DNA from: Desulfobacteraceae bacterium UBA2174
Lineage (GTDB): Bacteria > Desulfobacterota > Desulfobacteria > Desulfobacterales > UBA2174
Reading direction: 5' to 3'
DNA length: 64,000 bases
NCBI GenBank assembly: GCA_002327445.1
Contig: DCWA01000011.1
Coordinates: 13,945-77,944 of the forward strand
Each line of letters begins with the position of its first letter. Positions within the stretch are counted from its first letter, which is position 1. The position numbers and the translations under genes are program-made. The notes under the pieces are model-generated. The model was not told where the DNA came from. It did no database searches and was given only the letters and a program-made list of their open reading frames with translations. Shown one piece after another: positions 20,385-26,588 of the stretch.

Positions 20385-21706
20385 ATGGAACCCCTCCCGA
20401 AAAGGCACAAATCGCCCGCTGCGCGACACCTGCCGCCCCTGCGCACCGCCTGGTGGGTTTGGGGCATGGCGGCACCGCTTTACCTGATCGGGTTCTTTTA
20501 CCGGGTGGCCCCCGCGGTGATGACCGCCGAAATGATGCGCACGTTTTCCATCGGCGCGGCGGCGCTGGGGAACCTGTCGGCCTTCTATTTTTACAGCTAT
20601 GTGTTGATGCAGATCCCCACCGGGGTCCTGGCCGATCGGTGGGGGCCGCGCCGGCTGCTCACCACCGGGGCGCTGGTGGCCGGGGCGGGAGGGGCGCTCT
20701 TCGCTTTGGCCCCCTCGTTGGGTTGGGCCTATCTGGGGCGTTTTCTCATCGGTGCCTCGGTGGCCGTGGCTTGGATCGGGTTGCTGAAGGTGGCCTCCGA
20801 CTGGTTTCCGCCGCGGCTGTTTGCCATGGTGACCGGGGTGGGGCTGCTCGGTGGAATTCTGGGGGCCGTGGGGGCGGGACCGCCGCTGCGCCTGCTCATC
20901 GACCACGTTCACTGGCGCATCGTGATGCTGGCGGCGGCCGGCGTCACCCTGGCGGTGGGCGCCGCGGTCTGGATGGTGGTACGCGATACCCCCGCGCAAA
21001 AGGGGTTTGTCAACTATTCGCACAGCGGTCCGGCCAAGACCCATCGGCCGGTGCGGGAAGGCTTGGCGGAGGTGTTGCGTTTTCGCAACGCCTGGCTGCT
21101 CTTCGTGATTCCCGGAGGCTTGGTCGGCGCCATCCTTACCTTCGCCGGACTCTGGGGAGTGCCGTTTCTCACTTCTCAATACGGGATGTCCACCGCCCGG
21201 GCATCGGTGTTGACATCGGTCCAATTGGTGGCCTGGGCCCTGGCCAGCCCCCTGTTCGGATGGTTTTCCGACCGCCTGGGGCGGCGCAAACCGCTTTACC
21301 TGGCCGGCCTGGTCACCGATTTGGCCGCCTGGGGGGCACACTGGTCTATCTTCCCGGTCTGCCACTGGCGGCGGTGGTGGGGCTTCTGGTGGTGACCGGC
21401 TGCGCATCCGGAGCCATGATCGTCAGTTTTGCCTTCGCCAAGGAATCGGTCCCGGCGGACCTGGCCGGCACGGTTTCGGGCCTGGTGAACATGGGAGTGA
21501 TGCTCGGCCCCATGCTGTTGCAGCCCCTGGTGGGCTGGGTTCTGGATACCTGTTGGACCGGCACCCTGGTGGACGGGGTGCGCCGATACGATGCCGCCGC
21601 CTACCGGGCGGGCTTTTCATTGATGATCGCCTGGCTGGCCCTGTCTTTGCTCCTGATTCTGTTCACCCGCGAAACCCGCTGCCGCCAATATCCGGCCACG
21701 CCTTGA
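20385..21706 (+). pseudogene. MFS transporter with an apparent -1 frameshift at a G6 run
   Basis: Frame 3 (track ORF 20349..21395; ATG at 20385) reads MEPLPKRH...FYFYSYVLMQIPTGVLADRWGPRRLL...FSDRLGRRKPLYLAGLVTDLAAWG. The protein continues in frame 2 (track ORF 20453..21706) as GTLVYLPGLPLAAVVGLLVVTGCASGAMIVSFAFAKE.... The break is at GGGGGG 21331-21336, and one extra G restores a 12-TM MFS. Confidence 0.8.
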
Positions 21707-22045
21707 CAGCCGAAACGATCTTCCGTTCCGGTCGCCGCCGCATATTAAATGAATGGAATTTGGTTTTTCTTGACGCTTCTATCCGATGAATTGTAATATT
21801 CACTACACTATCGTTTTGTCGTCTCTGAAAAAATCGTTCCTCAGAGGCGCCGCGCCGGCCGGATCCTGCGCCGGCGCGGCGAATGCGGATTCAGAGCTTG
21901 CAAGAGGATGCCGTTTCCCTGGTGGGCATGCGTAAGCGTCCGGGGAACCGCATCTTCTCAAGCCCATGAAAATTTCTCACAGATGGTCTCCACAGGCCGT
22001 GAACTATTTCAGCCAAGGAGGAGACATCGTGACAAGCGTTACCGT

Positions 22046-22308
22046 CGGCCACGGTGGTGTCCGGTTTGATCAAGGAGGTGACGACTGCATTGGTAATTTC
22101 CGGATGCGCTTCCGCCGTCTCGTCCCGATGAACATGGATTCCGGATCAAGTCCGGAATGACGGAACGGGGCCGGACGAATCCGGGTTCCTTCAGCAGGCC
22201 GTCACCCCGGTCCCGGATCAAGTCCGGGATGACGGACCCGGGGTCCATTTCGAACGGCTGAAGAATTCCAGGAGTATTTCCAGGCAATTGAGCGTAGTCA
22301 CATATAAG
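22046..22308. repeat. Copy A of a ~250-bp direct repeat bounding the TetR/radical-SAM cassette (contains MITE-like cores)
   Basis: cggccacggtggtgtccggtttgatcaaggaggtgacgactgc...gagcgtagtcacata(t/c)aag is near-identical to 26075-26318, with three substitutions seen. Copy A has a 25-nt segment (tcccggatcaagtccgggatgacgg, a second MITE core) where copy B has 6 nt. Confidence 0.9.
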
Positions 22309-22314
22309 GAGGTC

Positions 22315-22343
22315 TTGACAATTTTGGCCCGATGGACTAAATT
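22315..22343 (+). promoter_or_regulatory. Candidate sigma70-type promoter of the tetR gene
   Basis: TTGACA (22315-22320), a 17-nt spacer, then TAAATT (22338-22343). It sits 34 nt upstream of the tetR ATG and starts immediately after repeat copy A ends. It is followed by the direct repeat TAGTCATATAGTCAT. Confidence 0.45.
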
Positions 22344-22376
22344 AGTCATATAGTCATTTCCAAAAGGATTCGAGCT

Positions 22377-22976
22377 ATGGGGACAAAAGAGGCGAATACC
22401 TTGCGTGAGAGCATACTCGCTGCATCGAAAGAATTGTTTGCCCGGCTTGGTTTTAAGAAGACTGCGGTGGATGAGATCGCCAAGAAGGCGCGGGTAGCAA
22501 AAGGCACGATCTACAATTATTTCCGAAGCAAGGAGGAAATTTACCGGGCTATTTTGCAGCGAGAGGGCAAGATCATGATTGTCAAAATGCGTGAGGCGAT
22601 GGGGAACCAGAAGACTTCCCAATTGAAGGTAAGGGAGATGATCATTGCCAAGATCAAATATTATAAAGATTTGAGCCTGTTATACGAGATCAACCGCCAG
22701 CGGGCGGAGGATCTCCTACCTTTTATAGAGAAAGAGCGGGCGGAGATCGCCAAACAGGAGTTGAACCTCATCAAGGAGATTCTGGAAGAAGGGGTGAACA
22801 ACTCAGCACTCCAGGCAATAAATATCCCTGCTACAGCAAAGGCAATCGCGGCGGCAATTAACGGGCTTGAATTTGGATGGACTCTGGAAATGGAGTTAGA
22901 GGGGGCAACCGCCGAGATAGACGATCTCCTTCAAATCCTTTTTCATGGCCTTGAGCTCCGTAACGCAAGGGAGTAA
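22377..22976 (+). CDS. TetR/AcrR-family transcriptional regulator
   Basis: 199 aa. The N-terminal HTH is ILAASKELFARLGFKKTAVDEIAKKARVAKGTIYNYFRSKEEIY. G+C is visibly lower than the flanks (28/60 on line 22381-22440). Confidence 0.9.
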   Translation: MGTKEANTLRESILAASKELFARLGFKKTAVDEIAKKARVAKGTIYNYFRSKEEIYRAILQREGKIMIVKMREAMGNQKTSQLKVREMIIAKIKYYKDLSLLYEINRQRAEDLLPFIEKERAEIAKQELNLIKEILEEGVNNSALQAINIPATAKAIAAAINGLEFGWTLEMELEGATAEIDDLLQILFHGLELRNARE

Positions 22977-22991
22977 TTTTTTTTTACCTGT

Positions 22992-23020
22992 AAATGACCA
23001 AACGACCAATTTGGTCATTT
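22992..23020. promoter_or_regulatory. Perfect 11-bp inverted repeat, candidate TetR operator
   Basis: AAATGACCAAA-cgaccaa-TTTGGTCATTT lies between the tetR stop (22976) and the ATG of the fusion gene (23049). An AAAGGAG RBS follows at about 23036. Confidence 0.55.
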
Positions 23021-23048
23021 TTGGGGATAGAGGAAAAAGGAGCACTAA

Positions 23049-25436
23049 ATGTTTTATTTAAATTACTTCGTTATCTTTTCTATTATGGGGTGGATACTGG
23101 AAGCGCTTTTCCGTTCGGTGAAAAACCGTCGAATGATCAACCCTGGTTTGCTGAAAGGCTTCTACCTGCCAATTTACGGCTTCGGAGCCCTCTTTGTTTT
23201 AGGGGGTCATGTTATTTTTGATACATACAGCCTGCCGATCCGCTCCCTTTTTTATCTCATTTGTTTGTCGGTTCTCGAATTAATCACGGGAGCAGTCATA
23301 GAAAAGATTTTTCATGTACGTCTTTGGGATTATAGAGACGACCGCTTCAACATCCGAGGGCACGTTTGCCTGCTTTTTTCGATTTATTGGATGTTGCTGG
23401 CGACCGGGCTTGATGTTGCTCTCGATTTCCTTATTCCCTGGGCGTTACATGTTTATGAACGATTCGATTTCCTTATTGACGTTGTTCTTGGCTCGGTAGG
23501 GCTGGCAATGCTTATGGATTTCATCTTGGTTGCGCGCAGGAGGATAAGAGAACGCAGCGGGCTGGTGGATCAGGATACAGCCCGACGGAGATTTATTGAG
23601 ATCGCCCGGCCGCTGCTTGAACATCCGGGCGTTATCAAGTTAAAGGATTTTAACCACCATTTCGGTAAATCCCGCCTTGACCACGTCCTGGACGTTTCCT
23701 GGAAGGCGTTTCGGATATCAAAGCGCTTATCGCTCGACTCCGAAGCCGTAGTCAAAGGCGCCCTTTTACACGATCTTTTTTATTACGACTGGCTCCGGGA
23801 AGGACCGCGATGGCACGGCATCAGACACCCCCTCATTGCCCTACAAAACGCGCGGAAGATTACCCCCCTCTCCGCCAAGGAGGAAGACATCATCAGGAAA
23901 CACATGTGGCCTTTAACCGTGATTCCCCCTCGATATCCCGAGTCCTGGGTGGTGTGTTTCACGGATATCTATTGTTCGTGGCGCGACTATCTGGCACCGA
24001 TGGCGCTGTTTTGCGTGGGCAGGCGCAAGGAGTGGCTCCCGAGCGAAACGTCCCGTTTTCCTTCATATCGCGTTATAAACAATGGCTTTTTGCTCAACGT
24101 GGAAAAGGTCTCCAGCCTTCCCGGGCCGAAGCTCGCCGGCCGCTCTCTGAATATTTTGCTGATTGACGCGCAACCGCGCGCCTTACCGTTCACCAAGTTC
24201 AGAACCCTCACCCTGCCGCGATTGGCCGGAGCGACTCCGGGTAAGCACAACGTGCGGATTATCGATGGCCGGGTGGAGAAGATCGAGATCCCTTCGGGTA
24301 TGTTTGACTTGGCGGGAATCACCTTCTCGACCAATAACGTTCCAATGGCTTACGAGCTTGCCCAAAAGGCTAAGAAGACCGGCCTATTAACCGTGGCGGG
24401 AGGAACCCACGCCACCGCTGTTCCCGAAGAGGTTCTCGAACATTTCGACGCTGTTCTTATCGGCGAGGCCGAGGGCGGAGCATGGGAGAGTTTGCTGAAA
24501 GACGCAGAACTTGGTTCGTTGAAAAGAGTTTATCGTAATGCGGAGCCGCCGGATCTGCGCAATTTAGCGCCGCCTCGTCTTGACTTACTGCACGGACTTT
24601 ATCTGCCGGTCTACCCGGTGGAAGCCACCCGAGGATGTCCCAATCGTTGCTCCTACTGCTTCAATCGATATATTCATCCGACCTATCGTAAACGCCCCAT
24701 TGACGAGGTGGCAGCCGATGTGGCGCGTGCCGACAGCCGTCATATTTTCTTTATGGACGATAACCTCTGCGCTGACCGCGAGTATGCAAAGGAACTGTTC
24801 GCGGCCTTAGCCCCCTTGAAGAAAAAATTATGGATGCAAATGGAGCTGAGGTCCGCCCAAGACGAAGAACTGCTGCGCCTGGCTGCGGAGGCCGGCTGCA
24901 AGGGCGTTTTTGTCGGGTTGGAAAGCATCAATTCGGCAAGCCTGAAATCCGTCGATAAGTCCTTTAACCACGCGCAAAAATACAAGGAACAAATATCGGC
25001 TTTAACCCGGCATGGGATATTAGTCGGCGGCGGCCTGATCTTTGGGCTTAACGGCGATGGTCCTGAAGTTTTTACGCAGACTCTGGAGTTCTTCAAAAAC
25101 AGCGATATTACTTCCCTTGCGCCCAATCTTGTCATTCCATACCCGGGCACGGCCTTTCACAGACAAATTACAAATGAGGGGCGGTTATTGAATCGTGATT
25201 ATAAGCGCTACACAGGCTATAGCGTGCTCGTCCAGCCGGAGCGCATGACAGCCGATCAATTGGAAATGGAATACGACAAATTCAACCAGGAATTCTTTAG
25301 CATCAAAAACATCACCAGTCGATTTCGGCATCAGAATCTGCCCCTTCGGGTTCTGCCCTATTATCTTGTTTTTAATATGGCCTATCGTGTCCCGCGAAAA
25401 GCGAAATCACGGACTCATTGGGCGGAACTGGGGTGA
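23049..25436 (+). CDS. Tri-domain fusion: CmpB-like (PF06541-type) membrane domain + HD phosphohydrolase domain + B12-binding radical SAM domain
   Basis: 795-aa uninterrupted ORF. Residues 1-150: FSIMGWILEALF...LKGFYLPIYGFGALFVL...EKIFHVRLWDYRDDRFNIRGHVCLLFSIYW. Residues ~175-310: ...SRLDHVLDVSW...GALLHDLFYYDW...IIRKHMWPL. Residues ~360-795: ILLIDAQP...GGTHATAVPEEVLEHFDAVLIGEAEG (B12-binding-like), then EATRGCPNRCSYCFN (CxxxCxxC) and ...GVFVGLESINSASLKSV.... Confidence 0.8.
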   Translation: MFYLNYFVIFSIMGWILEALFRSVKNRRMINPGLLKGFYLPIYGFGALFVLGGHVIFDTYSLPIRSLFYLICLSVLELITGAVIEKIFHVRLWDYRDDRFNIRGHVCLLFSIYWMLLATGLDVALDFLIPWALHVYERFDFLIDVVLGSVGLAMLMDFILVARRRIRERSGLVDQDTARRRFIEIARPLLEHPGVIKLKDFNHHFGKSRLDHVLDVSWKAFRISKRLSLDSEAVVKGALLHDLFYYDWLREGPRWHGIRHPLIALQNARKITPLSAKEEDIIRKHMWPLTVIPPRYPESWVVCFTDIYCSWRDYLAPMALFCVGRRKEWLPSETSRFPSYRVINNGFLLNVEKVSSLPGPKLAGRSLNILLIDAQPRALPFTKFRTLTLPRLAGATPGKHNVRIIDGRVEKIEIPSGMFDLAGITFSTNNVPMAYELAQKAKKTGLLTVAGGTHATAVPEEVLEHFDAVLIGEAEGGAWESLLKDAELGSLKRVYRNAEPPDLRNLAPPRLDLLHGLYLPVYPVEATRGCPNRCSYCFNRYIHPTYRKRPIDEVAADVARADSRHIFFMDDNLCADREYAKELFAALAPLKKKLWMQMELRSAQDEELLRLAAEAGCKGVFVGLESINSASLKSVDKSFNHAQKYKEQISALTRHGILVGGGLIFGLNGDGPEVFTQTLEFFKNSDITSLAPNLVIPYPGTAFHRQITNEGRLLNRDYKRYTGYSVLVQPERMTADQLEMEYDKFNQEFFSIKNITSRFRHQNLPLRVLPYYLVFNMAYRVPRKAKSRTHWAELG

Positions 25437-25704
25437 ACGCGGGCTACCTGGAGCGATGAACAACTGAACCGTTGCTTTTCAATTGTTCCAGAATTTGAGA
25501 GGGAAATACATCGAAGAAGAGCACCCACATTATGCTTGGGCTTCTTGCGGCAATCGGATTGATGGCGCTGCACGGCTGTGCTTCCGTGCGCCCCAATGTC
25601 ATAAACTTAGGCTAAAACCTGCTGAATTACTTGACTTTTCAGCGTATTCTGCTATCCTGTGAACAGCTCAAAAACCCATCTTTTTTTCATCGAAAGGAGA
25701 AAAA

Positions 25705-25906
25705 ATGTCAAAAAATTCTTTGAAAAACGATAATGTTGGCACGGAGGTTGCTTTGCCAATCCTATGCCAAACTTATTGAATTTTTTAGAAATATCGTTAC
25801 CAGCCCCGAATTCTGCATCAAGCACCGCAACTCGGGAAAAGACTTCTCCAGAAACCGCAAGATTCCTTTTGTTGCCTTCCGCATTAATCCGCAGAAAAAT
25901 TCCTGA
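25705..25906 (+). pseudogene. Degenerate 5' remnant of an IS4-superfamily transposase gene
   Basis: An AAAGGAG RBS plus ATG 25705 gives MSKNSLKNDNVGTEVALP... and then a stop. Another frame continues with ...EFFRNIVTSPEFCIKHRNSGKDFSRNRKIPFVAF.... This resembles the conserved N-terminal box (F..HR....FTR.R.LPF) of IS4-like transposases. It is only ~65 codons and needs at least 2 frame changes. Confidence 0.35.
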
Positions 25907-26074
25907 TTAATTCGACCTTTGCTGGACAATTTCAGATTAAATCGGCGAGCCGCGGAAGCGGCCCGACGTGAGCTGAGTCAGTTGGCGGTTAGAACGGGAT
26001 GTTGTCTCGCATGGGGCAATGGTCTTTATAGCAGATCACCGGCGGACGCAACTTTCGATTGTCAGCGCCGCCGC

Positions 26075-26318
26075 CGGCCACGGTGGTGTCCGGTTTGATC
26101 AAGGAGGTGACGACTGCCTTGGTAATTTCCGGATGCGCTTCCGCCGTCTCGTCCCGATGAACATGGATTCCGGATCAAGTCCGGAATGACGGAATGGGGC
26201 CGGACGAATCCGGGTTCCTTCAGCAGGCCGTCACCCCGGGCAAAGACCCGGGGTCCATTTCGAACGGCTGAAGAATTCCAGGAGTATTTCCAGGCAATTG
26301 AGCGTAGTCACATACAAG
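26075..26318. repeat. Copy B of the ~250-bp direct repeat
   Basis: See 22046-22308. It contains the MITE core ggattccggatcaagtccggaatgacgg. Confidence 0.9.
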
Positions 26319-26588
26319 CCATGCCGCCGGCCGCAGGTGCGGCCTGATTGATCGTAGAAGAAGCTTTTACTTGAGCATGGGACGATTCACCTTTATGAGC
26401 ATGGCTGTTTTTTGGAACGGTAGCAGTCGAGACCCTTTTATCACTGGAGCATCTTGCCCCTATGACAAGCATGGTTCCGGGCCGCCCATGATCAATGATG
26501 AGGCAACCGCACTCACCTAAATTTTCCAGCTTCCTGTCAACTCAATCTGAAATCAACCCGCGGGTTCAAGACACTTTATTGTGGGACC

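Follow-up and report, generated by a model that had tools for sequence, protein, structure and literature searches.

At positions 22037-26318 of the window (the whole 64,000-nucleotide stretch of the Desulfobacteraceae bacterium UBA2174 genome that was analysed), two direct repeats, copies A and B, enclose an interior (22309-26074) with a regulator gene, a radical SAM fusion gene and remnants of other genes. All genes, fragments and repeats located in the window below lie on the + strand. A sigma-70-like promoter of tetR (TTGACA-17-TAAATT, 22315-22343, 10/12 match) starts 7 nt after copy A and is kept in all homologues of the cassette. The tetR-family gene itself (22377-22976) is intact; its 199-aa product matches PF00440 (E=6.6e-16) and is equal in length in the homologous contigs L037 and L094. 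A palindrome, GACCAATTTGGTC (23004-23016), separates it from the next gene (23049-25436), which is also intact and encodes a 795-aa fusion protein with domain matches to CmpB (membrane), B12-binding and Radical_SAM and a weak HD-like match. We found about 23 clusters of full-length homologues of this protein, at 55-94% identity.

Downstream of the fusion gene remain about 29 codons of an outer-membrane efflux lipoprotein gene (25505-25591), with a signal peptide and a lipobox, which lacks a start codon and breaks off at 25594. The remnant shares 55% identity, over 29 aa, with the gene that comes next in L037, at the syntenic position. In the L038 context the downstream genes have OEP and RND membrane-fusion (MFP) domains, and in L033-L035 a fragment 3' of the radical SAM gene matches ACR_tran (RND pump). 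These contexts indicate that what survives of a tetR/radical-SAM/RND-efflux operon is its head, made up of tetR and the radical SAM gene. An end of the cassette at 25480, seemingly common to L033 and L037, was considered and rejected, because the one in L033 is a deletion of its own and L037 continues into the efflux gene at lower identity.

At 25594 an IS4-like (DDE_Tnp_1) sequence takes over, consisting of the left end and the first ~50 codons and then truncated (25594-25870); it is 96% identical to C43:76253-76529, where the 437-aa transposase is intact. The rest of the interior is a copy of a separate repeat of ~195 bp (25870-26065, ending ...ATTGTCAG), which also has copies in G001 and G002, both of the same genus, and in G019, a genome of the same order. 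The contents that an earlier note on this DNA had listed were all confirmed: a promoter-like site by the repeat edge, tetR, an operator (here the palindrome), the fusion gene and a transposase remnant. The interior is a patchwork of dead fragments and not a coherent cassette.

As the same note had proposed, the interior looks foreign. Its G+C content of 0.495 is among the lowest 1.2% of 3.77-kb windows of the genome (0.625±0.039), its tetranucleotide distance is in the top 1.3% of genome windows, and the local G+C is 0.67-0.71 at 20.4-21.0 kb versus 0.42-0.51 at 22.2-23.8 kb. A search of 150 other genomes of the order, three of the four same-genus genomes among them, turned up no copy of the fusion gene, and the tetR/radical-SAM core was absent at the DNA level from all 30 relatives searched, including all four of the genus. 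Homologues of the cassette, with 73-95% DNA identity, reside in unrelated metagenome contexts, and none of seven distinct homologous contexts has such a repeat beside it. A plasmid origin was rejected, as none of 72,556 plasmids carries the fusion protein's homologue in full length. Composition and distribution together support the view that the interior is horizontally acquired accessory DNA.

The two direct repeats

Copy A (22037-22308, 272 bp) and copy B (26066-26318, 253 bp) stand in direct orientation. The repeat blocks 22035-22210/26064-26239 and 22235-22308/26245-26318 are 97% and 99% identical, respectively. The near-identity begins at 22046/26075, where the earlier note had placed it, and its count of three clean substitutions and one indel, which is complex, was borne out by pairwise and family alignments. 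Homology at the level of the repeat family begins 9 nt further out, at 22037/26066; four A-B transitions lie there, and the first 11 nt of the two copies are divergent. Overall, A and B differ at 10 of 251 aligned positions and by a 19-nt indel. The extra core that had been noticed in copy A is present: it is TCCCGGATCAAGTCCGGGATGACGG at 22211-22235, which replaces GCAAAG of copy B and forms an additional REP-type hairpin module within the loop of a conserved hairpin.

Comparison with a young copy on contig C34 gave identities of 241/251 (A-B), 242/251 (B-C34) and 232/251 (A-C34). Copy B has no private change relative to the other two and, by this absence, looks master-like. The three copies form a star around a single master sequence, a pattern suggestive of recent insertions in a burst.

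A genus-wide repeat family

Both copies belong to a dispersed family of miniature elements that is genus-wide, non-coding, hairpin-rich and about 250-270 bp long. There are 18 family matches and at least nine copies in the genome itself, with full-length copies on C34, C41, C24 and C42 among them, and 46, 13, 8 and 1 matches in the same-genus genomes. Two relatives, G003 and G004, lack the C34 copy in their orthologous intergenic region; both this site and the match counts (1-46) reveal presence/absence polymorphism between related genomes. Outside the genus, a search of another 26 genomes of the order, for which the entire 7.7-kb region was the query, found no full-length copy. In an exact-pattern scan of all GTDB species the family appeared only in two MAGs labelled Desulfobacteraceae, and the copies there are identical to copies from two of the same-genus genomes.

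The element does not contain a transposase gene (ORF tables show short frames only), and we found no terminal inverted repeats joining the family ends. AG stands before the element at 24 of 32 5' ends, and 16 of 21 3' ends finish with it. The sole match in an Rfam scan of 21.0-27.5 kb was a chance miRNA below threshold. RNAalifold applied to 15 repeat copies returned 49 pairs, six of them with double-sided changes, and a covariation term of +0.6, which weakly supports an RNA fold of the element.

Relation to an IS110-family insertion sequence

The genome has intact IS110-family recombinase genes: 468-aa ORFs on contigs C33 and C15 match DEDD_Tnp_IS110 at 88-92 bits, and the C33 protein matches Transposase_20 as well. 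The full IS is ~1.68 kb long, with a left end of ~267 nt and a right end of ~10 nt. The HMM of the repeat family matches the start of the left end in both IS copies (nhmmer E 3e-5 and 8e-5). Family and IS have in common the 5' ~35 nt (the match extends over ~35-50 nt) and the 3' ~10 nt, where the IS reads GTTTCA(T/G)ACGAG and the repeats read GTCACA(T/G)AC(A/G)AG. Since the IS copy in G003 occupies a unique intergenic site, these end sequences are part of the IS itself rather than of its target. An AG dinucleotide appears to bracket the repeat element as it does the IS, and this bracketing, together with the common termini, suggests mobilization of the repeat in trans by the recombinase of the IS. 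Internally, on the other hand, the repeat has no homology to the inside of the IS left end, so that it is not a simple deletion derivative of the IS. No homologue of the recombinase was found in G004, the relative richest in repeats, in an assembly that is 94% complete and fragmented.

The left end of the IS holds guide-like words that change from copy to copy together with the flanks of that copy. In the G003 copy, TAAAACAAG equals the left flank and CAGACGAG the right end; at the aligned positions of the C15 copy, TCAGTGAG equals the left flank and ATACGAG the right end. The site of the C33 copy does not match C33's own guide word, and the guide assignments as a whole are word matches in three IS copies. 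Most repeat copies, moreover, follow ...TCAG, which matches none of the three guide words from the sampled IS copies; this and the C33 site speak against the link of the repeats to the IS110 element. For the repeats, matching the words of the flanks to each copy's own interior yielded no consistent rule across copies; in A, C41 and C24 the matches, in the segment after TTGATC, were suggestive. A right-donor guide in the IS was dropped, as it consisted of one 8-nt match in the window copy and the other copies gave no support. A third IS110-family gene, on contig C7, was rejected as the partner of the repeat, to which its left end is unrelated.

A piece of this IS adjoins copy B. It is a truncated left-end fragment of ~199 nt covering the bridge-RNA region (26319-26517), inserted exactly 3' of the terminal AAG of copy B, and it is 97% identical to C33:187451-187645, which lies upstream of the 468-aa ORF with the DEDD_Tnp_IS110 and Transposase_20 domains. 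It contains a candidate target guide, CTATGACAAG, at 26460-26469. We describe the family, which is new, as probably consisting of IS110-associated miniature elements, and its partner IS with it.

Flank duplications at some copies could be read differently. The repeats would then be ordinary MITEs mobilized by a DDE transposase with a target duplication of 7-9 bp, their likeness to the IS110 ends would be due to target preference or chance, and the two insertions at the locus would still be independent. Indeed, the young C34 copy is flanked by a perfect duplication of 9-11 nt (ACTAGTCAG), as a DDE-type transposon would leave, and the flanks of two older copies, L043 and L040, match at 6 of 7 positions. 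However, while 3 of 12 full-length copies have a 7-9-nt flank duplication, the other 9 have none, the terminal inverted repeats of such an element are missing, and both ends match those of an IS110-family IS, to which the unique site in G003 assigns them. Furthermore, tandem ...TCAG heptamers, frequent in the 5' flanks, can mimic a target duplication; insertion into such short tandem motifs would explain the C34 case. We therefore consider a DDE-type MITE unlikely.

Flanks of the repeats

The sequence to the left of copy A is composite. The 3' end of an MFS-like gene and its downstream region (21482-21931) are 93% identical to a paralogue on contig C17, and this homology ends exactly at 21931, the left edge of the mosaic. 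It is followed by an IS66-family fragment (21932-22036, 89% identity to C24:39496-39601), which comprises the left end (GTAAGCG...), a ribosome-binding site and the first-ORF codons GTG ACA AG and is cut at copy A. Many copies occur in same-genus genomes, and the C24 counterpart continues into TnpB_IS66 and DDE_Tnp_IS66 genes. With a slash marking the position of the element, the left flank of copy A continues as the IS66 first ORF in the C24 copy, GTGACAAG/GGATCAAC; the continuation of the IS66 that flanks copy A itself is absent from the window and the genome. On the right, copy A meets the tetR cassette 6 nt upstream of the tetR -35 box (...ACAAG/GAGG...), at a site that is uninterrupted in homologous cassettes, AAAGTTACAAG/GAGGC. 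Copy A thus has chimeric flanks, IS66 on the left and the tetR cassette on the right. A match of 7 nt links its left flank, GTGACAAG, to the C33-type guide word TATGACAAG, and the IS in G003 sits at AAAACAAG/GAGGC, which resembles the right flank of copy A.

Copy B is inserted at the 3' end of the ~195-bp repeat. The outer flanks of the pair differ, with IS66 codon 3 left of A and the IS110 left end right of B, and have no target-site footprint in common. Insertion into a duplicated target element, one of the options raised earlier, found no support, as the outer flanks are not one split site and the repeats are dispersed independently of the cassette.

We found no tRNA gene between 10 and 40 kb and, by Pfam, no integrase domain in the large ORFs of 19-31 kb, where the sole mobility-related match was a weak one to HTH_21; fragments of ISs and repeats form the borders of the island. 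Synteny with the four same-genus genomes is limited to the MFS-like gene; 26.3-46 kb is hardly conserved in them, and they contain no clean empty site for the island. The 4.3-kb stretch is part of a mosaic accessory island that starts at 21932, 3' of the conserved MFS-like gene, and is not a purpose-built cassette.

Discussion

The explanation that we favour, with a probability of about 0.6, is that the repeats are independently inserted and recombined miniature IS110-type elements in an insertion hot spot, around a truncated acquired operon. They would be transposase-less relatives of the resident IS110-family (bridge-RNA-guided) IS. The payload would be the 5' part of an acquired operon made up of tetR, the CmpB/HD/B12-radical-SAM fusion gene and RND-type efflux genes, which an IS4-like insertion probably cut inside the first efflux gene. 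The IS66 sequence left of copy A suggests that the cassette was joined to the locus by recombination at such an element, which could have been site-specific or homologous between two copies of the element. Copy B would have been inserted separately, into the ~195-bp repeat, and would later have served as the landing site of the IS110 element. Both this order of events and mobilization in trans are what we infer from comparing sequences.

A more far-reaching reading, which we think quite unlikely, is that the repeats may encode a bridge-like guide RNA of their own or supply donor ends, and that the pair, with the IS110 recombinase, captures and moves the genes in between. If true, the pair would act as an RNA-guided counterpart of a composite transposon, and the chimeric flanks of copy A would be the scar of the guided recombination that brought in the tetR/radical-SAM module.

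In composite transposons of the Tn10 or Tn5 type, two IS copies flank the cargo. The locus is similar in that accessory genes whose composition is foreign lie between two direct copies of a single mobile element, and a composite or expanded IS110-type transposon could be imagined, in which the IS110 recombinase uses the outer ends of the two copies, left for A and right for B, to excise a 4.3-kb circle that moves with its cargo as one unit. The direct orientation, the intact family termini of both copies and the recombinase genes elsewhere in the genome would allow it, and there are published precedents in cargo-bearing, stepwise expanded IS110 loci with partial circles and one-sided donor matches (10.64898/2026.08.14.744561) and in a transposase-less module moved by ISPpu9 (PMC12288879). 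The unit, however, is single-copy in the genome and was not found elsewhere; the left junction of A and the A/cassette junction had 0 matches in metagenome contigs, and the seven homologous cassette contexts are without the repeat. Moreover, the interior consists in part of dead IS fragments and a truncated gene, and the outer flanks are not one target site, with no target duplication around the whole unit. In contrast to composite transposons, the flanking elements have neither transposase nor inverted ends, and the nearby IS110 piece is a 199-nt left-end fragment that lies outside the interval. A composite unit is thus very unlikely.

Of the related proposal of an excisable module, only a formal possibility is left. 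About 250 bp of direct repeat at 96-99% identity can recombine, and homologous recombination between the two copies could still remove the interior. Neither a deleted or circular form nor a second unit was found, however, and there is no sign that such a deletion serves a function.

Similarly improbable is a Campbell-type integration, in which a circle with the cassette and one repeat recombined with a resident repeat and left one on each side. The repeats have exactly the extent of a dispersed homologous element, as expected after such an event, and the chimeric flanks of copy A are those of a recombinant copy. Yet the reciprocal junction is missing. It would have AAAGTTACAAG to the left of B and the rest of the IS66 to its right, whereas B has the end of the ~195-bp repeat on the left and the IS110 left end on the right, and no junction of the cassette-side half-site with a following repeat exists in the genome. 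In addition, copy B, without private differences, looks like a source copy and not a recombinant. An assembly artefact, with a repeat copy duplicated or the interior misjoined, as had also been suggested, is highly unlikely to be the cause: although the genome is a 47-contig draft and family repeats coincide with contig ends in relatives (a G003 contig ends 29 bp past the MFS gene), the copies differ by the 10 substitutions and the 19-nt indel, have four different unique flanks and lie well inside a 79-kb contig without N.

Independently inserted miniature IS110-type elements, the reading that we favour, have a close parallel in MITEPpu9 (the ssr9 module), which accompanies ISPpu9, an IS110-family element of Pseudomonas putida KT2440 (PMC12288879). 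Both are short and transposase-less, have left and right ends like those of an IS110-family element and no classical inverted ends, are found adjoining the IS as well as alone elsewhere, and are thought to borrow the recombinase of the IS (PMC12288879). Circles and trans-mobilization have been shown for ssr9 (PMC12288879), whereas for the present family both are inferred from its sequence. The present family is also unrelated in sequence to MITEPpu9, is limited to one genus of sulfate reducers, has no known sRNA, and consists of hairpin-rich elements of about 250-270 bp with nested REP-type hairpin modules.

The partner IS (the C33, C15 and G003 copies) resembles the IS621-type IS110 elements described by Durrant et al. 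2024 (PMC11208160) in its DEDD recombinase, long non-coding left end, very short right end and lack of inverted repeats. As in those elements, the left end contains words identical to the left flank of the IS together with the core, and to its right end together with the core (PMC11208160). The core on the coding strand is AG here and CT there (PMC11208160), and the cassette-flanking repeats differ in having no recombinase gene and an interior that is not homologous to the IS left end. The locus also recalls the expanded, cargo-bearing IS110 loci of a preprint by Hu et al. 2026 (10.64898/2026.08.14.744561), with its locally repeated insertions, one-sided junction matches, accessory genes between element ends, and non-coding units in tandem by an IS110 end, here copy B followed by the IS110 left end. 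Unlike those loci, the interval has no intact recombinase inside, and its cargo is a truncated operon and not a set of resistance genes.

If the favoured reading is correct, the boundaries of the cassette would be accidents of repeat insertion and IS decay, which removes the idea of a self-contained excisable module, while the operon remnant gives a functional context for the tri-domain radical SAM gene. The repeat family would explain contig breaks and repeat nests in assemblies of the genus. It would add to the few described transposase-less derivatives of IS110 elements, with candidate guide words and a case of chimeric flanks, and would agree with growing indications that insertions recur locally at IS110 loci.

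Direct repeats and the DNA between them

The earlier note described near-identical direct repeats that differ by three substitutions and one indel, and both the repeat finder and pairwise alignment bore this out. In the window, the repeat finder reported two collinear direct-repeat blocks, 22035-22210/26064-26239 (97%) and 22235-22308/26245-26318 (99%). Alignment of copy A (22037-22308, 272 bp) with copy B (26066-26318, 253 bp) showed that the blocks are parted by a 19-nt length difference, TCCCGGATCAAGTCCGGGATGACGG in copy A (22211-22235) versus GCAAAG in copy B, besides which three clean substitutions distinguish the copies. At the start of the element, the initial 11 nt (22037-22047 versus 26066-26076) show four transitions, which is why the repeat had been taken to start at 22046. 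The alignment revealed no relatedness outside the repeats on any of the four sides, and an assembly artefact seems, from the sequence itself, an unlikely origin for the pair.

REP-type hairpin modules of the form GGATTCC-stem-loop-GGAATGAC (for example, CCGGATCAAGTCCGG) lie at 22141-22163, 22213-22235 and 26170-26192, and at about 41 sites genome-wide. Their nested positions vary from copy to copy of the repeat family; they have compensatory stem variants (CCTGC/GCAGG and CCGGG/CCCGG) and behave like small insertions in their own right.

The interior (22309-26074) has a G+C content of 0.495 versus 0.625±0.039 for 3.77-kb windows of the genome (lowest 1.2%), and by tetranucleotide distance it ranks among the top 1.3% of genome windows; it is, thus, outlying in both measures, as had been claimed for G+C. 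The contents described previously were all found, namely a promoter-like site (22315-22343), tetR (22377-22976), a palindrome (23004-23016), the gene for a 795-aa CmpB/HD/B12-binding/radical SAM fusion (23049-25436) and a transposase remnant.

Homologues of the fusion protein formed about 23 full-length clusters (55-94% identity), nearly all metagenomic; the gene was not found among 150 other genomes of the order, nor was a full-length homologue found in a plasmid search. A tetR-family gene directly precedes the fusion gene in 7 of the 7 contexts read upstream, and, where downstream DNA was available, two contexts have efflux genes after it: OEP and membrane-fusion genes on metagenome contig L038, and a residual ACR_tran fragment on L033-L035. 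On L037 the next gene had no domain call, yet its start encodes the lipoprotein signal seen in the L038 OEP gene, and L097 carries unrelated genes (enoyl-CoA hydratase and others) downstream instead of efflux genes. DNA identity to the window was 94.8% for L033-L036 (one context), 85-87% for L037, L094 and L096, 79% for L038 and 73-75% for L097. In the window, 29 residues of the efflux gene product remain (25505-25591), with a signal peptide and lipobox and 55% identity to L037 at the syntenic position. This remnant is cut short at 25594 by an IS4-like element, whose left end is 96% identical to an intact copy on contig C43. The IS4-like element is itself truncated at 25870, the start of a separate 195-bp repeat that runs up to copy B with the ending ...ATTGTCAG. 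As a whole, the interior is made up of a truncated operon of foreign origin and debris.

Just upstream of the cassette in L033-L036 (L034 positions 61-169), a repeat of ~110 bp is 91-98% identical to six sites of the source genome (on C37, C9, C45, C13, C11 and C17), so that the 94.8% cassette probably sits in a close relative of the source organism, at another locus. In that copy, deletion has reduced the efflux genes to a 155-aa ACR_tran fragment adjoining vapBC. On L037, positions 266-2873 hold DUF2924, a large serine recombinase and a 153-aa ORF directly upstream of the tetR/radical-SAM module, which suggests that the module is carried on an integrative element in that organism.

A dispersed repeat family

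The source genome (3.86 Mb, 47 contigs) contains 18 matches to the repeat, with full-length or nearly full-length copies on C34, C41, C24 and C42 plus many fragments, and the four same-genus genomes contain 46, 13, 8 and 1. Among 30 relatives searched with the whole 7.7-kb region, full-length copies were confined to same-genus genomes. When one genome of each GTDB species was scanned for an exact pattern, the family turned up in just two MAGs, both labelled Desulfobacteraceae; their copies are the same, base for base, as ones from two of the same-genus genomes. On these searches, the family appears limited to the genus.

The aligned copies have sharp common ends, CGCYGCCGCCGGCC... at the 5′ end (after AG) and ...GTCACA(T/G)AC(A/G)AG at the 3′ end, without terminal inverted repeats. 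The C34 copy sits between two conserved genes, and two same-genus genomes (G003 and G004) lack it in the orthologous intergenic region; the family, therefore, shows insertion polymorphism. Over 251 aligned positions, identities were 241 for A and B, 242 for B and C34, and 232 for A and C34, and copy B had no private change in this alignment, so the three young copies form a star around a B-like master. Such a star is the pattern expected of recent transposition; a local duplication involving A and B alone would not leave it.

Short tandem heptamers such as GTTCAAGGTTTCAG or GTTTCAGGTGTCAG often precede repeat copies (for example, L040, L043 and L054; C41:256 and C41:1832), and may represent favoured target sites, footprints or a portion of the element itself. 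At a contig end of the source genome (C44:23300-23957) are tandem units of ~403 bp, each starting with ACAAG, the boundary and CGCTGCCGCCGGCCGCCGGCTTGATCC, followed by GTGTCATCCCGAGG-type hairpins; the 5′ ends of the repeat family and of the IS110 left end are of this kind too, and the units may be another related miniature element family. A search for the word AAGTTACAAG also found arrays of 8-9-nt units (CTAAAGTGA/CTAAAGTTACAAGTGA...) at several genome sites (for example, C29:4901-4917, C37:135554 and C45:111562), a tandem short-repeat family.

Probable relationship to an IS110-family insertion sequence

The sequence directly 3′ of copy B (26319-26517) is 97% identical to C33:187451-187645, where the match opens a non-coding left end of ~267 nt, followed by a 468-aa ORF with DEDD_Tnp_IS110 and Transposase_20 matches. 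Copies on C33 (187447-189123, L069), C15 (42357-44046, L070; 83% identical) and G003 contig C265 (L072) defined an insertion sequence (IS) of ~1.68 kb, in which the left end is long and the right end lies only ~10 nt beyond the stop codon. The same layout characterizes the IS110 subgroup that encodes a bridge RNA in its left end (PMC11208160). The G003 copy occupies a unique intergenic site, and its parse as left target AAAACA, core AG, IS, AG and right target GAGGCAAC is supported by the orthologous gene start in the source genome. Its left end holds one word, TAAAACAAG, that equals its own left flank plus AG, and another, CAGACGAG, that equals its own right end; at the aligned positions of the C15 copy, TCAGTGAG and ATACGAG likewise equal that copy's own left flank plus AG and own right end. 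Such covariation of word and flank is what bridge-RNA target and donor guides should show. The G003 copy lies on the ribosome-binding site of an acetoacetyl-CoA-synthetase-like gene, where GAGGAGG is rebuilt.

The first ~35 nt of the repeat family match the IS (C NNN GCCGCCGGCC, a hairpin, then TTGATC), with nhmmer E values of 3e-5 and 8e-5 for the two IS copies, and the last ~10 nt are common to both, with the same T/G polymorphism that splits the two IS guide variants. AG stands before 24 of 32 element starts, and it forms the last two bases at 16 of 21 ends. The interiors of the repeat and of the IS left end showed no homology by nhmmer. The closest published counterpart is MITEPpu9, the ssr9 module of the IS110-family ISPpu9, which has IS-like ends as here, is present both alongside the IS and independently of it, and forms circles of its own (PMC12288879). 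Judged by its ends, the repeat family is a probable IS110-associated miniature element.

Movement by a DDE-type mechanism would fit the perfect 9-11-nt duplication that flanks the C34 copy and the 6/7 matches around two older copies; however, short tandem ...TCAG motifs are frequent in the 5′ flanks and could mimic a duplication without true target duplication. Further points weigh against a firm assignment to IS110. Most repeat copies are preceded by ...TCAG, a context that the three sampled guide words leave unexplained. No recombinase homologue was found in G004, the genome richest in repeat copies, in an assembly that is fragmented and 94% complete. Within the repeat, covariation at the RNA level is weak (6/49 pairs).

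Junctions of the cassette

Upstream of the tetR promoter, homologous cassettes read AAAAGTTA(C/T)AA(G/A)GA..TTGACAA without the repeat, and copy A in the window lies exactly between ...AAG and GAGGTCTTGACA. Its left flank, CATCGTGACAAG, derives not from the cassette but from an IS66-family element, of which it comprises the ribosome-binding site and first codons. The left end of the IS66 element begins at 21932; comparison with a paralogous segment on C17 places the end of the ancestral sequence at 21931. An intact IS66 copy on C24 runs on from GTGACAAG across this point into GGATCAAC... and the TnpB_IS66 and DDE_Tnp_IS66 genes; the rest of the window's IS66 copy was not found in the window or genome. 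Copy A, thus, lies at the joint of two half-sites that differ in origin and share the terminal word (T/G)ACAAG, which resembles the C33-type guide word TATGACAAG, also present at 26460-26469. In the window, the segment with the C17 paralogue (21482-21931, 450 bp) comprises the last 225 nt of an MFS-like gene and its downstream region, and its 93% identical duplicate (C17:42129-42579) lies next to unrelated genes.

We infer that recombination at a member of the repeat family, either guide-directed or homologous between two copies, brought the cassette beside the IS66 stump. A simple Campbell integration yielding both A and B is not supported, because the reciprocal flanks are absent from copy B. 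Neither the left junction of copy A nor its junction with the cassette was found in the metagenome collection.

The earlier interpretation of the region as foreign and recombination-prone DNA stands, whereas it errs in taking the repeats for the boundaries of a cassette. The result is a mosaic islet: the head of a decayed tetR/radical-SAM/efflux operon happens to lie between two copies of a probable IS110-associated miniature element. The related IS on C33, C15 and in G003 is a clean natural example of candidate bridge-RNA target and donor guides.
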